64,000 nucleotides of DNA from Phyllosticta citribraziliensis (GCF_038025025.1 NW_027117344.1:1860001-1924000); one strand, 5' to 3'; positions 11,388 through 18,538 are shown, counted from the first letter of the stretch. Notes: generated from the letters alone by a model not told the origin. Numbers and translations are program-made.

Positions 11388-12181
11388 TCACAGACCAGCC
11401 ACGACAGCGGCGCCCAGGCCAACGAGCAGGCCCCAGGCGCTGAGGGGTTCGAAGGCGGCGACGGCAGCCGACGTACCCGATGCCGTCGCGTTGGGAGCGG
11501 TGCCGGTCGAAGTCGCGGTGGTGCCGGATTCGGACTGGTTGGCGTTGGCATTGGTGTTTGTGAACTCGGCCGAGACGCCCGTGCTGTTGGAGCAGTGGGC
11601 ATTGTAGTCGGACTCGGAGAGGGGCGCGGCGGTGAAGGTGACGTCGGCGCACTGAATGTTTGTGTTGTGATTAGCTTGTGCTGCTATTGTGTGGTTTGCG
11701 CGTGGAGCTGGGGTGCAAGAAAGACTGCGGCGAGATGGGGAAGAATGAGGTGGGGGCGTACCTGGTACAATCCGCCATCGGGATCGCCGTTGGTGACGAC
11801 CTGGATGGTCGCGTTGGTGCCCTCGCTGATGTTCATGCCGCCCAGCATGCCGGGCACGACGACGCCTCCCAGACAAAAGTCATTGGGTCCGCGCTCGCGC
11901 AGCAGCGGCCGCAAGACGTAGTTGAAGGCGGGACCGACGTCGTTGCCCAGACCAATCAGCACTTGGACGTTGGCCTCGGTGTGGTGCATGTCGAGCTGGA
12001 TGGGGAAGGGCGCGTTGACGGGAATCATGGTGCGGTTGGTGCTGGGCGTCTCGAAGCCGCCGCATGGGTACTCGGCGGCCTTGTCGTCGTTAAAGCCGCG
12101 CGCGGTGGGCCAGTTCAAGAGGAAGTGGGCAGAGGCCAGCGAAGGGCCCAGCAGGATGAGTGGAGTCGAGGTGAGGCGCAT
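11388..12181 (-). CDS. GPI-anchored His-brace copper-binding protein, Bim1/X325 (LPMO-like) family. Exons 12181-11762, 11651-11388
   Basis: Signal peptide ending ASA followed by mature HFLLNWPTARGF..PCGG (His1). Second His in DMHH, NGDPDGGLYQ|CADV (Asp ligand region) across the intron, S/T/A-rich stalk, hydrophobic GPI-signal C-terminus. Confidence 0.85.
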
Positions 12182-12609
12182 TTTGGTGGTCGCGGTTCAA
12201 TTGGTTTCCTTGTTGTTGGTTGGGTGAACTGGTGTTGTGAGAGGAGGGAGTGGAAACGGAAATGATTTCCAAATGGGCGTCGGGCTTTGAATATAGCAAA
12301 GCTGAAGCGGGGAGGCGGAATGGAAGGGAGTTAAGGTTTGCGTCTAAAGTGGAGGGTTCAGCTGACGGGAGGAAGTCGAGAGGGTTTTGATCGTGTTTGA
12401 TGGACGGTAGGGGAGGTGGATAGAGTGGATGTGAGCAATCCGAGAGAGATTTAAATGGGCAGCTTGTCCAGGACTACATGTACAGTACATGCAGATGGAG
12501 ACAGGGCTGGTCCAGATGTTTGGGCGGGCCGGGGCGACGGACCAGTTGATGACAGCGGAGTCTACGGTACCTTACGGTACCAGAGGAGTAGGGTACATGG
12601 GATGCGCGC

Positions 12610-12621
12610 AATTGAGCACAT
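12610..12621 (-). promoter_or_regulatory. Putative Mac1-type copper-response element upstream of the Bim1-like gene (ATGTGCTCAATT on the minus strand)
   Basis: Contains TGTGCTCA. An identical 12-mer occurs at 13731-13742. Confidence 0.6.
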
Positions 12622-12892
12622 TAGGAAGCCATCGCGCTCGCGTCGGGCAGGGGTGACCCGATGCAGTCAGCCTAGCCTAATGTATCTTTACCCATCCAGC
12701 TGGGCTCGACGGCGAGCGGCCTTTTTTTTTTTTTTTTTTTATTTATTTTCTTTGTTTACAATTGGTGCATCTGTCACCTCGTCTATGCTTTAGAGAGAGC
12801 AAAATGACCCCAAGACTCCTCGCCTTCAGTGGACAGTTGTACAGCAAAGCAAAAGTAAATGATGCGAATGTAACCCGTAAGCCGTCCCGCCG

Positions 12893-13525
12893 TCAGTGCT
12901 CCGCCATGGCCTGCACGTAGCGCCCCACTAGCACCTCTCCCAGGAATGTGCCGCCGAGAATTGACATGAAGTATCCCACATTGAGCGTCATTATGGCGAG
13001 CATCCTGTGCCAGTGTTAGCAGCATCCAGCGTGATGAGCACATCCGATGGACTCTTACAGCAACCAGCCGACTCCAGCAATCACCGTGGCAAGCAAGGCG
13101 CGGGGCAGATCGACGCTGAATCTCCACGGCTGAGGACCCTTGATTTGCTGCTGTGTGACGACGACGTTTTGTTCCACGCCATTGACCATCAGAGTACCCG
13201 GGCTGCTGCTCGCGTCCTGCTTGATGCGCTCCGACTCGGGTGTCTGGCCCGCCACCACGACGTAGCGGCGCTGAAGGGCTTGGGCCAGCCATCGCTCCTC
13301 GATGATGCTTTTGGCTGCAAAGAGCGCCCGCCAGGCCACGGCCAGGGCTATCAGGAAGATGCAAGTGGCCGCGTACTGTCCGACCGTGTGTGGCGTCCAT
13401 TGGTCCGAGTAGAGCGGCGTAGTGGAGCTGGCGAAGAAGGTCATGCGCATTGCCGACACGTCCATGGAGCTCATGTCGCCGCCAGACATGTCCATGCCGG
13501 ACATTTCATCGTGTCGTTTAATCAT
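12893..13525 (-). CDS. Ctr-family high-affinity copper transporter. Exons 13525-13059, 13004-12893
   Basis: N-terminal Mets motifs (MSGMDMSGGDMSSM, MRMTF), LYSDQWTP, TM1, MLAIM (MxxxM in TM2), NVGYF, GGTFLG (GxxxG in TM3). Confidence 0.93.
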
Positions 13526-13730
13526 TCTTGGCCAAAAGCGTCGCGGAGGAGGCCAGGCGGGAATTGATTCGGGGACGAGCACGAGGTTGTCGGTGCGCGA
13601 ACGATGGCGCAGTTTCCAGACTGCTTCTCCGAGGCCTGGATGTCTGATCTGGAGGCAGTGGCGTTGTTATAAGCGTTGGGGAGAAGTGTTGAAGGACGGA
13701 TGCGAACGAAGCGAGGGGGAACTTGCGCAG

Positions 13731-13742
13731 ATGTGCTCAATT
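13731..13742 (+). promoter_or_regulatory. Putative Mac1-type copper-response element in the ctr/fre divergent promoter (ATGTGCTCAATT)
   Basis: TGTGCTCA core lies between the two divergent start codons (13525 and 14181). Confidence 0.65.
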
Positions 13743-14180
13743 AAGTGAGATTGTCGGAGAGGGTGCTTCAGAAAGAAGAGGCGCAGCCCGAGGTTGAGCG
13801 TGTGCGGTGGCTTTCTGAAGCAGCCAGCCAAAGGACAGGGCGTGAGTTTGAGGCAGTTCTTAGTAACCAGGGGACTCCTGGCTCGCCATTGGCCCGTCGC
13901 ATCCACCACCTCACCTCCATCTTGCATCCGATCCCACCTCTTCAGCCCTCTGCCGCCAGCCTACATAACCCACATGTAGCGTTGCATTCGCCCTCACTTT
14001 CAGCCCTGTGCCACTCCACTTGCACACCTGTTCGCTGCACGCCCGCAACTACTTTTCTCGCCGACCGACCAGCCTCAATCTCGACGCCTCGCGACGCGAC
14101 GAAACCTCATGGCATAACTGTGTCGCAACACGCGACTTTCCAATTCCCAAAACGCCCGACGCCTGGTCTAGCCTCGCAAA

Positions 14181-16510
14181 ATGAAGGCCAGAAGGCATGA
14201 CATGTCCGGCATGGACATGACCGGCATGGGCGGCATGTCGTCGTCCAGCCCCACCGGCTTGCCGTCGCTGCAGCTTTTTCAAAAAATGTACTGGGCCGTC
14301 GTGGGCGCCTTTGTCGCAGCCGCGACGCTGGTAAACATCACCAACTACATGATCTACCGGCAGAGGTGGGTACACGCGCACATCTCCCGCTGGATCCACT
14401 TCGACTGACATCATCTAGATTGTGGGCCGCCCAGCACGGTGACCCAACTCCTGCAAAACCAAAGTCTTTGGCCTCACGAATCAACGCGACTGCAACAGCA
14501 ATCCTTCGAGAAGCGACCAATGCCACATTCGCGCCATGGGTGGTCCGCGGCTTCCGCTTGCGCGTGCCGACTGTCGGCAACACATTTCTGGTCTTGGCCA
14601 ATGCAGCGACGCTTCTGGCCCTGTGCTTCTATGGTTTCAACCTAAATGACCAATGGTCCTTTGAAGACATTGGCTACCGCACTGGCTGCATGTCTGTGGC
14701 GCAGCTGCCTCTAATCTTCTTGCTGGCCGGCAAAAACAACATCATCGGTTGGTTGACTGGCTCGAGCTACGAGCGCCTAAACTGGCTGCACAGATGGGTG
14801 TCCCGCACGCTGCTACTCACCGTCACGATCCACATGGGGTACTGGTTTGGAGACTGGGCTCCATACAACTACATTGGCGACAAGATCCGCACCGACTCCA
14901 TCACACAACACGGCCTGATTTCCTGGTGCCTGCTCCTATGGATCACGTTCAGCTCCGCCGCTCCAATTCGTGGTTGGCGCTACGAGGTGTTCGTGATTCA
15001 GCATCTAATTTCATTCGCCGTCTTCCTTGCCTTTGTCTACAAACACGTTAGCTCCTGGCCAATGTACGTCCGGGTCTACGTTTGGATTCCGGTCGCCCTC
15101 GTTTGCTTTGACCGCTTCGTGCGGGCCGCCTGGATGCTCTACACCAACGTTTCCCTCTTCCATCCCAAGCCGCGGCGCAATGGCCACATGTCTGGCATCT
15201 GGGCCTGCAAAGCCGATTTCACGCCTCTGCCTCACAACACTACCCGTGTGACCATCAAAAACCCACCGATATCTTGGAAACCCGGGCAACATGTGTTCCT
15301 CTCCTGTCACTCGGTCGTTCCTCTCCAAAGCCACCCGTTTTCCATTGCATCAATTCCAGGCGACAAGCAAATGGAATTCTACATCAAGTCTGAAAATGGT
15401 GCCACCAAGCGCTTCTTGGCACATGCCGAAAAGGTTAACATGCTGCCAGCTAATGCAGCATCCGCCGCCAAGACGACCAAAGCGGTCACCATTGATGGAC
15501 CATATGGCCGGATCAGGCCCCTGCGTCAGTTTGACAGCGTTGTTTTATTTGCAGGCAGCACGGGTGCGACCTTCATCATGCCTTTGCTGCGGGACCTAGT
15601 TGCGCATTGGCAAACCCGAGCCGATTCCGCTCCGCACAAACGTTCCGGAGTCTTTTCACAGCCCCCCGGCGCCATTGCGACCCGCCGCGTCCGCCTGGTC
15701 TGGGTGGTCAAGTCGCGCGGGCAGCTGAGCTGGTTTGCGTCGCAACTCTCGCTTGTCCAGGACCAGGTTGCGCAACTGCACTCGTCGGGCGCAGATATCG
15801 ACGTAGAGTCGAGCGTCTATGTTACTTGCGATCCCAGCTTTACAGAGGAGCAAAAATCGCAATCGACAACTGCGAGGCCCAGTAGAGTCGTCGAGGAGCA
15901 GCCCCAATCGCCCGACACAGTCGCCGGCCCCTTTATAGACGAAAAGAAGCGCGCATCTGGTGACAGGTACAGCGAACGCGAGGTGGATGACAGCAACGCG
16001 TCTACACTTGGCGAAGGCGACGAAAAGAATACTCAGGCGTGCCCCGACGACACTTGCTGCTGTACCGCAACAGTCGAAGATGAGGATGCCATTTCAGCCG
16101 CTAACCGCGAATGCACCTGCGGCGTTAACCCTAACAGCAACAAAACCCGCGATCCCAATCCTCCTGTCAATGCCGGCACCGAGATTCCTACAAACGCCCC
16201 ATCTCCTCCTTCCTCTCCACCCCCTTTTACCCCTCTAATGACCTCTCCCTCGCCCTCATCGCCTGCCAACAATAACGCTACTCCACTGCATCCCGCCATC
16301 CACATTTTAGCCGGCCGCACGCACCCACGGAGTGTGATTCGCAAGAGTCTGGAGCAGGCCCTGGGCGAGACGGCTGTCGTGGCGTGTGGGCCGGTTGGGC
16401 TGGTGGATGACTGCAGAGACAGCGTGGTCCGCCTCAGTGATGAGCGCGCTGTGCATAAGGGAACTGGGGCGCAAGGCGTTTGGTTTCATGGGGAGAGGTT
16501 TGGGTGGTAG
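14181..16510 (+). CDS. Ferric/cupric reductase transmembrane component (FRE family). Exons 14181-14365, 14419-16510
   Basis: Bis-His heme helices WLHRW...TIH and QHL...YKH, PGQH, FAD motif HPFSI, DGPYG, AGSTG, CGP and terminal ERFGW. Confidence 0.93.
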
Positions 16511-17551: not shown

Positions 17552-18370
17552 TCAGCCTTCTACCGGGACATTTCCCCCATCAACATCTCCCCCTTCTCCA
17601 GCAACCTTTCCATCACCCCCAAGACCCGTGTTCTCTTTCTCCTCGCCCGCCGCACCGCTCTCCTCCACGCCAACCGGAAAATACCACGCACTATCGGGCA
17701 TCTCACTGGACTCCAAAATGGTCAACCACCGCCTCTTCCCCGTCAGCGTCATGCACAAGAACAGCGCGTCGCGATACGCCACGCGCAGCACGCTCTCAAC
17801 GCCGCGCAGCTGCGCGCCCGACAAGCCACCGAGGAGGGGCTTCCGGTACGGCAGCAGCCGCGTGTCGTGCGGGTCGGTGCTGTTGATGTAGTTTGCGCGC
17901 TCCGGGCTCCAGAGCTCGGCCAGCCGCGCGTACTCGGCGCCCACCCTCGCGCGGCACGCGAGCGACTCGCCGGGCGTCGGCTGCGTCTTGCGCGGGTCCG
18001 TCCAGTTCACGTTGGCGTCTGTGGCGCTGAAGACGCGCCAGGCGGCCGTCGCGAAGGCCGCGTGCTGCGGGCTGCCGAGCGCGAATGCTATGTCGTCGTC
18101 GTCGTCGCCACCATCGCCCCCGTGCTGCGCGCCGCGGAAGCGCGCGATGCGGGCGTACGGGATGTACTCGATCCAGCCAAAGTCGGCGGGCGCGGGGGTG
18201 ATGGAATTGGGCCAGAGTTTGAAGTACTCGCCGACCGCGCCAGTCAGCAGGATGATGAGGCTTAGGAAGAAGGGCAGCGTGGTAACGACACCATAAGGTG
18301 AGCTTTGAAGTATTGGGCGTCGCGGAAGACGCGGCTCGGGCCAGGGAGATTGTTGTTGTCGTCGTTGGTG

Positions 18371-18407
<37 letters not shown>

Positions 18408-18538
18408 TGGTGGATCGAGGTGATTGTTGGCGTGTACTGCGCTGGCCGTCCGCTGTCCCAGGCGCTGCTCTGGTGGCCGGGCTCAGAGTCGCGCTTGGCG
18501 GTGAAAGAGCGCGTCGTTCGACGGGGCGGAGTCGACAT
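17552..18538 (-). CDS. Hypothetical protein with a poly-Gln tract and one predicted TM helix
   Basis: 328-aa ATG-initiated ORF with GC-rich third positions, (CAG)n-encoded polyQ and hydrophobic LPFFLSLIILLTGAVG. No family recognised. Confidence 0.5.

Follow-up and report, generated by a model that had tools for sequence, protein, structure and literature searches.

A linked BIM1-like, Ctr and metalloreductase gene trio from Phyllosticta citribraziliensis, a probable copper-uptake module

The three genes and their transcripts

A stretch of 64,000 nucleotides from Phyllosticta citribraziliensis (GCF_038025025.1 NW_027117344.1:1860001-1924000), here called the window, carries at positions 11388-16510 three consecutive genes that appear to be dedicated to the acquisition of copper. 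They encode a BIM1-like protein of the X325 family (minus strand), a copper transporter of the Ctr type (minus strand) and a metalloreductase of the FRE type (plus strand), and each of them is interrupted by one intron (Table 1). The start codons of ctr and fre are 655 bp apart and the two genes diverge, and a distance of 711 bp separates the ctr stop codon from the start of the BIM1-like gene downstream of it. An earlier note on this DNA had proposed three consecutive genes with divergent ctr and fre and with the BIM1-like gene downstream of ctr; coordinates, Pfam matches and spliced RNA all agree with it. The profile searches that it suggested matched as well, with PF20238, PF04145 and the combination of PF01794, PF08022 and PF08030 all found in the window genes.

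The BIM1-like protein consists of 227 amino acids and is 100% identical to an NCBI protein of the same length that is named 'putative GPI anchored protein' of Phyllosticta citribraziliensis (GPI, glycosylphosphatidylinositol). It matches PF20238 with an E value of 2.8e-25 (89.9 bits; the cut-off is 27), and the same domain is present in all 120 BIM1-like homologues listed. Conservation was assessed in an alignment of 42 of these 120, for which near-full-length and mostly named sequences were chosen. His19 is invariant in 42/42, and conservation reaches at least 90% for His67, Asp133 and Asp143. The BIM1-like protein also matches LaX325, the X325 protein of Laetisaria arvalis with a solved structure (6ibh_A), with an E value of 5.5e-13; in this alignment His19 falls on residue 1 of the chain and His67 on its His49. 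The sequence ...ASA|HF also puts His19 first in the mature protein, the bar marking the presumed cleavage site. In X325 proteins the copper site is completed by an aspartate ligand, according to the excerpts available of PMC10952591. Both Asp133 and Asp135, situated in a conserved NGDPDGG loop one gap off the loop aspartate of 6ibh, are candidate copper ligands. With such a site the protein would be able to bind Cu(II). The hydrophobic tail, residues 209-227, and the Ser/Thr/Asn-rich linker in front of it fit a GPI signal, and the anchor is considered as putative.

For the transporter, PF04145 is found on both exons (E 3.6e-22 for exon 1 and 2.5e-06 for exon 2). The Ctr motifs could be read from the sequence: MxxxM in the second transmembrane helix (M-L-A-I-M), GxxxG in the third (G-T-F-L-G) and Met clusters at the N-terminus. 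A Kyte-Doolittle hydropathy scan under-called the helices, recovering two of the three. The reductase, with 758 amino acids, matches PF01794 (Ferric_reduct), PF08022 (FAD_binding_8) and PF08030 (NAD_binding_6), all above the cut-offs. Its haem ligands, His186, His200, His257 and His271, form two histidine pairs on the third and fifth transmembrane helices and are invariant in 72/72 reductase sequences.

All three genes are represented in public RNA. Contigs from two runs that belong to two different studies (X1 and X2) show no difference to the window, and their splice joints are those of the three predicted introns (11652-11761, 13005-13058 and 14366-14418), each GT..AG on the strand of its gene. 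The joint of the BIM1-like gene, 11651->11762, is also found in X5, one of two plant-metagenome RNA runs (X5 and X6) with spliced contigs that are 90-95% identical and originate from a relative. The contigs of the reductase begin at or before 14160 in X1 and 14028 in X2 and have their joint at 14363->14417; since these starts lie upstream of 14181, the first exon with its start codon belongs to the mRNA. None of the RNA contigs bridges two genes, and the three genes are separately transcribed. The segment 13778-13954 is uncovered in both X1 and X2 and carries no evidential weight. Upstream of the start codon of the BIM1-like gene, a contig of X2 covers 12241-12608; this gene has either a long 5' leader containing the TGCTCA at 12432, or receives read-through from ctr. 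Just downstream of the Ctr gene there is a long A-rich tract at 12712-12759 (T-rich on the plus strand), beside which the Ctr contig stops, at 12760; the tract was skipped as a repeat in the placement of the reads.

Table 1. Features of the trio, in positions of the window (minus-strand exons and introns are given in the direction of transcription)
Feature	Position	Strand	Description
BIM1-like exon 1	12181-11762	-	Signal peptide and histidine-brace domain: His19 (= mature His1), His67, Asp133/Asp135 loop; PF20238
BIM1-like intron	11761-11652	-	110 nt, GT..AG, RNA joint
BIM1-like exon 2	11651-11388	-	Ser/Thr/Asn-rich linker and hydrophobic C-terminal tail (putative GPI-type signal); stop codon included
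BIM1-like promoter / 5' leader	12432-12621	-	TGCTCA cores at 12432-12437 and 12613-12618, the latter inside the 12-mer ATGTGCTCAATT (12610-12621)
Ctr gene	12893-13525	-	192 aa; exon 1 13525-13059, exon 2 13004-12893; PF04145
Ctr intron	13058-13005	-	54 nt, GT..AG, RNA joint
Ctr Met-rich N-terminal ectodomain	13439-13525	-	Read from sequence
Divergent ctr/fre promoter	13526-14180		655 bp; ATGTGCTCAATT at 13731-13742, core at 13734
FRE exon 1	14181-14365	+	Met-rich N-terminal tail (14181-14246) and extra transmembrane helix (TM0)
FRE intron	14366-14418	+	53 nt, GT..AG, RNA joint
FRE exon 2	14419-16510	+	Six-helix haem domain, FAD (flavin adenine dinucleotide) and NADPH domains, Cys cluster
Cys cluster	16040-16120	+	Reductase residues 603-629, disordered insertion of the NADPH domain
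Inverted repeat	arms 13481-13509 / 14197-14225		29 nt, 90% complementary; Met-motif coding stretches of ctr and fre

Conserved linkage and a common promoter motif

The linkage of the three genes was surveyed in metagenome contigs, in the DNA around relatives of the BIM1-like gene. Starting from 156 pattern matches, 77 relatives were confirmed, at 76 loci. Neighbouring genes were found by tblastn with single-exon translations of the window genes, and grouping at a nucleotide identity of at least 95% gave 50 lineage groups, 24 of which are informative, their sequence extending at least 2.7 kb beyond the BIM1-like gene in the upstream direction. In 19 of the 24, a Ctr gene is located upstream on the same strand, at a distance of 624-1969 bp. 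An FRE gene follows further out, in opposite orientation, in 18/18 groups with sequence reaching that far, which is the layout of the window. Five further, short groups have the Ctr gene at the same place. The linkage that the earlier note expected to see in a neighbourhood survey is thus conserved, and it goes beyond chance. Judged by their best named matches, the linked loci comprise Aureobasidium-like (reductase 97% to P0302), Alternaria-like (99% to P0317) and Pyrenophora-like sequences, and also Helotiales-like contigs with a BIM1 83-96% to proteins of Leptodontidium and Hyaloscypha. In three named genomes, those of Bogoriella megaspora, Bathelium mastoideum and Dothideomycetes sp. NU459, the locus tags of BIM1 and FRE are two apart (M1820_002449/002447, M1821_003148/003146 and g6092/g6094). 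The three proteins of Saccharata proteae all list a contig of 17,287 bp and those of Lojkania enalia one of 129,830 bp, the equal size being taken in both cases to indicate the same contig.

The promoters have a motif in common as well. The 12-mer ATGTGCTCAATT is present in two copies in the 64-kb window, one upstream of the BIM1-like gene and one between ctr and fre, and occurs nowhere else in it, while 0 are expected from shuffles. Its TGCTCA core equals that of the Fusarium Mac1 site DHNTGCTCANNN (PMC11563359). When each linked group is represented by one locus and the window is added, the density of this core amounts to 1.88/kb in the fre-ctr regions and 1.76/kb in the ctr-bim1 regions, versus 0.55/kb in the rest of the loci; at least one copy is present in 19/19 of the former and in 18/20 of the latter. 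The counts, 37 and 38, compare with 16.0 ± 3.9 (maximum 29) and 15.0 ± 3.9 (maximum 27) in 1000 first-order Markov simulations. Among all 6-mers, collapsed with their reverse complements, TGCTCA ranks first by the number of regions containing it. The extended consensus common to both promoter regions is (G/T)AAAC(G/T)TGCTCA. Over all 76 loci, which are not deduplicated here and total 666 kb, 34 of the 36 matches to AAAC[GT]TGCTCA are situated in the two promoter regions, that is in 14% of the bases, and 25 of the 36 are upstream of BIM1. Of the two outlying matches, one is upstream of a Ctr gene on a contig that does not extend to the neighbouring reductase. BIM1-like genes that are unlinked from ctr and fre also retain AAAC(G/T)TGCTCA, about 380 bp upstream (L009 9624-9634, L031 513-523). 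A second copy is found in L009 at 6051, upstream of another gene.

Because of this conserved linkage and the shared Mac1-type motif, it is well supported, with a probability that we put at roughly 0.78, that the locus constitutes, in a Phyllosticta-like Dothideomycete, a module for the uptake of copper under copper limitation, composed of three separately transcribed genes that are kept together across the Pezizomycotina. In this module the GPI-anchored BIM1-like protein would bind Cu(II) at the surface by means of its N-terminal histidine brace. The reductase, which is of the NADPH oxidase (NOX) type, would move electrons from cytosolic NADPH through its two haems and convert Cu(II) into Cu(I) outside the membrane, and the Ctr trimer would import the Cu(I). 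A Mac1-type copper-sensing activator probably drives all three promoters through AAAC(G/T)TGCTCA-like sites, and the trio would then be regulated by copper in this organism. Cu(II) as substrate of the reductase at the cell surface is suggested by the protein family, by the linkage to ctr and by the Met-rich tail that is described below. The relay of capture, reduction and import put forward in the earlier note fits the domains, His19 with the second histidine, the linkage and the shared motif, while copper binding, the substrate and the hand-over between the three proteins remain the inferred parts of it. At the scale of the survey, the trio occurs widely among filamentous ascomycetes with a fixed order and orientation of its genes, and one Mac1-type motif is common to all three genes and is retained by BIM1-like genes when these are unlinked. 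Together this supports a general copper role of this X325 clade outside Cryptococcus.

Several observations weigh against the copper-uptake module. In 5/24 informative groups (L009, L027, L032/33, L062/63/75 and L067) the sequence upstream of the BIM1-like gene, which extends for up to 10 kb, contains neither ctr nor fre, and on one short contig (L004, 264-1762) a Ctr gene is convergent and downstream, a case of rearranged linkage. The linkage of the trio is therefore not obligatory. The five unlinked groups fall into two clades in the tree of the BIM1-like domain (support 87/89 and 100/100), and these would represent either two losses or two paralogous lines. In the window, the ctr/fre promoter contains one TGCTCA and the region upstream of BIM1 two, and the core is not enriched across the window as a whole (33 found, 48.8 expected). 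Furthermore, the borders of the regions for which motif densities are given are ends of tblastn hits and not annotated genes. The RNA demonstrates transcription only, and contig depths cannot rank the genes or compare conditions. In Pseudogymnoascus destructans, the CTR genes and BLP3, a Bim1 homologue, are unlinked by locus-tag number (PMC12113139, excerpts). The third gene of a comparable cluster in Fusarium oxysporum, FOXG_07771, is annotated as 'SAM domain-containing protein', and Bim1 is never mentioned in the paper on this cluster. Finally, other X325 members have been tied to symbiosis, hyphal fusion, synnema formation and cell-wall integrity, according to the available parts of PMC9695133 and PMC9258870.

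These other functions, the absence of a nearby ctr or fre in the five groups and the conservation of the ctr-fre pair by itself in 110/127 fungi (PMC7705104, excerpts) would also suit a functional unit of two genes, with the BIM1-like gene as a cell-wall or developmental GPI passenger beside it. Such a passenger, however, would hardly be expected to carry AAAC(G/T)TGCTCA upstream, as BIM1 does in 25 matches and as the unlinked genes of L009 and L031 do too, and the order and orientation of the trio are retained in Dothideomycete, Helotiales-like and other contigs. Published expression data point in the same direction: the GPI gene is the most strongly co-induced member of an Aspergillus fumigatus trio, with a value of 11 in the co-induction table versus 8 and 3 for the other two (PMC2481287, excerpts), and in P. 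destructans copper withholding raises the expression of BLP3 26-fold (Anne et al. 2025, PMC12113139, excerpts). The two-gene unit with a passenger is therefore regarded as improbable.

A cluster for reductive iron uptake or for a general oxidative-stress response, instead of copper acquisition, is very improbable. It could be imagined since reductases of the FRE family reduce both Fe(III) and Cu(II), as established for yeast Fre1/Fre2 (cited in PMC12113139, excerpts), and the A. fumigatus trio was framed as 'iron/copper assimilation', its triple deletant being sensitive to menadione (Sugui et al. 2008, PMC2481287, excerpts). That deletant is nevertheless normal on iron-limited medium, and menadione sensitivity would, in our view, be explicable by a poor copper supply to Cu/Zn superoxide dismutase. 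The gene in the middle is a copper channel, the promoters contain a Mac1-type motif, and the Met-rich tail of the reductase resembles those with which Ctr proteins bind Cu(I), all of which argues for copper.

The DNA is fungal, with 57-59% G+C around the trio and with spliceosomal introns. Among 15 large flanking open reading frames scanned for Pfam domains there are no other copper-related genes; the set includes an aldehyde dehydrogenase, a glutamine synthetase and a GH3 glycosidase. Directly past the reductase gene, at 17552-18538 on the minus strand, there is an open reading frame of 328 amino acids with a poly-Gln run and no Pfam match.

The Met-rich tail and the Cys cluster of the reductase

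An AlphaFold2 model was made on the orthologue of P. citricarpa, which is 91% identical, with an alignment of 72 sequences (mean predicted local distance difference test (pLDDT) 79.1, predicted template modelling score 0.81). In this model a disordered tail (residues 1-29) is followed by a long helix (30-67, TM0), a short helix and a hairpin, six transmembrane helices and then the FAD domain. The structures of NOX2, NOX5, DUOX1 and SpNOX all align to the model from about residue 111 on, with Z scores of 20-23; for NOX2 (8wej_B) Z is 22.8, with a root-mean-square deviation of 3.4 over 450 residues, and residue 8 of NOX2 falls on residue 113 of the model. In NOX structures the core begins and ends in the cytosol. 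As it is preceded here by one extra helix, TM0, the Met-rich tail is predicted to face outward, on the side on which Cu(II) would be reduced, and the basic loop after TM0 agrees with this orientation. In certain aspects the reductase is reminiscent of the DUOX-type NADPH oxidases, which have the same six-helix NOX core with one extra helix before it; DUOX1 aligns to residues 111/114-757 of the model with Z 20.5-20.7. The extra helix of DUOX puts the N-terminal part outside. There DUOX has a peroxidase-like domain, whereas the window reductase has a tail of about 30 residues, rich in Met and predicted to be outside.

The tail seems to be a general characteristic of these reductases. Of 120 listed homologues, 74 contain the first helix with its xQR end, as identified by pattern; the remaining 46 consist of 45 short models (597-693 aa) without the first exon and of P0282, a pattern miss in which the tail is visible. 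In the 74 full-length orthologues the tail has a median length of 22 residues. At least three Met are present in 65/74 and at least two MxM/MxxM motifs in 60/74. Met accounts for 21% of the residues of the tail versus 1.4% of those elsewhere in the protein, and the tail contains no Cys. When tails were read from the DNA of 15 lineage representatives, 13 were Met-rich and two (L014 and L074) His-rich with few Met. The Met-rich start peptide of the reductase resembles the N-terminus of Ctr. The tails of Ctr and reductase also look alike within lineages, with an RRHD-type start in Phyllosticta and its relatives and His-rich starts in Pleosporales-like sequences. There are hints of co-evolution of the divergent first exons of ctr and fre, or of sequence exchange between them.

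A second element of the reductase is the Cys cluster, C-x4-CCC-x16-CxC (Table 1). Its columns are conserved in 64-71 of the 72 orthologues; 59/72 show the complete pattern C-x(2-8)-CCC-x(8-30)-CxC. The cluster may be a metal-binding or regulatory element, and a role in sensing Cu(I) is a guess. No description of an outward Met-rich tail or a cytosolic Cys cluster of the reductase was found in the searchable literature, and a literature search on the Met-rich motif of fungal reductases yielded none on the topic, as judged by title and abstract.

On the basis of these elements it is possible to speculate about a NOX-type reductase that is dedicated to copper and has its own acceptor for Cu(I). 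The Met/His-rich tail, carried by TM0, would catch the nascent Cu(I) and pass it to the Met-rich mouth of Ctr, instead of its being released and re-oxidised, while the Cys cluster would be a sensor for Cu(I) in the cytosol and slow the enzyme down. With the BIM1-like binder added, this would constitute a channelled relay of three parts, encoded by one conserved locus. The proposal is tentative, and we rate its chances as somewhat below even.

A copper function of the tail is not a necessary assumption. The Met-rich N-terminus could be a by-product of sequence exchange between first exons, or could face the cytosol. The inverted repeat that joins the Met-coding stretches of ctr and fre (Table 1) is in line with such an exchange; fewer than three Met are found in the tail of 9/74 full-length orthologues, the tails of 2/15 lineage representatives are His-rich and Met-poor, and the topology has been deduced for a tail that is disordered in the model (pLDDT about 43). 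On the other hand, the strong enrichment of Met speaks for a function, and the tail sequences vary between lineages and yet remain Met- or His-rich. This conservation of composition despite sequence differences makes a recent copy less likely than selection on the composition itself. The single helix TM0 in front of the NOX core would place the tail across the membrane from the cytosol. A tail without copper function thus seems rather unlikely. An outward Met-rich tail and a cytosolic Cys cluster would explain the specialisation of a NOX-type enzyme for copper. Both elements are a new lead, and of all parts of the locus they are the one most worth following up.

Relation to known copper-uptake systems

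The arrangement has a clear precedent. In A. fumigatus, Afu6g02800 (putative GPI-anchored protein), Afu6g02810 (copper transporter, ctrA2) and Afu6g02820 (metalloreductase) are adjacent on chromosome 6 and co-induced (Sugui et al. 2008, PMC2481287, available in excerpts). All three genes were deleted at once, and the deletants were normal on low iron and with H2O2 but did not grow with menadione. These are three adjacent genes of the same kinds as in the window, and they were treated as a unit. The earlier note's claim that such a trio was undescribed in an ascomycete consequently has to be withdrawn. In contrast to the window, the A. fumigatus trio belongs to the Eurotiomycetes; its GPI protein was without known function in 2008, and its genes were interpreted in terms of iron/copper or oxidative stress. 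The orthology with the window genes rests on a chain of literature and not on an alignment, and the comparison concerns adjacency alone, not order or orientation. In this chain, AFUA_6G02800 is the best Swiss-Prot hit of VC83_07867 of P. destructans (Reeder et al. 2017, PMC5810475), and VC83_07867 is BLP3 (PMC12113139, excerpts), which ties Afu6g02800 to the Bim1-like proteins.

P. destructans responds to copper withholding with an induction of the CTRs, of BLP2/3 and of three reductases, and an import model with CTR, BLP and reductase has been drawn up (PMC12113139, excerpts). Proteins of the same three kinds are hence proposed to act jointly in high-affinity copper import. Unlike in the window, the genes are mostly dispersed; in the excerpts, the one pair with neighbouring tags is BLP2 (VC83_03095) with a reductase (VC83_03096). 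This reductase is a copper-induced metalloreductase according to the same excerpts, and the pair would form a variant of the cluster with two genes and no Ctr. The earlier note also saw in this locus support for a copper role of X325 proteins outside Cryptococcus. The locus does fit such a role, but it is not the first indication of it, as the induction of BLP2 and BLP3 by copper withholding had already been published. In Cryptococcus neoformans, a basidiomycete, Bim1/Cbi1 is a histidine-brace, GPI-anchored protein of the X325 family that acts in copper uptake together with Ctr1 (PMC7924993 and PMC9258870, excerpts); Bim1 and Ctr1 are proteins of the same kinds as in the window.

Parts of the arrangement are known from other ascomycetes. 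In A. nidulans, AnctrA and AnfreC are adjacent and have a common promoter with a Mac1 site, and it is this pair whose wide conservation is mentioned above (Antsotegi-Uskola et al. 2020, PMC7705104). The pair comprises two genes only; no GPI or third neighbour is mentioned in the available text, in which 'GPI' has 0 occurrences. In Fusarium oxysporum, ctr3, fre9 and FOXG_07771 have Mac1 peaks in chromatin immunoprecipitation sequencing and are induced without copper (Palos-Fernandez et al. 2024, PMC11563359). The order by gene number is the same as in the window, with FOXG_07769 as reductase, 07770 as Ctr and 07771 as third gene, and fre and ctr are divergent.

In the literature searched, for most papers at the level of listing and abstract, and outside of which Garcia-Santamarina 2020 and Labourel 2020 fall, no text was found that explicitly describes a physical cluster of BIM1, Ctr and FRE, identifies the GPI gene of the trio as Bim1/X325, or notes a conservation of the trio across classes. 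The trio of the window is a further example of a known arrangement: adjacency and co-regulation have been on record since 2008, and publications on the ctr-fre pair (2020), on the binding of Mac1 (2024) and on a model with all three proteins (2025) followed. To a trio known piecemeal from Aspergillus, Fusarium and Pseudogymnoascus, it adds a Dothideomycete example with gene models that are confirmed by RNA.

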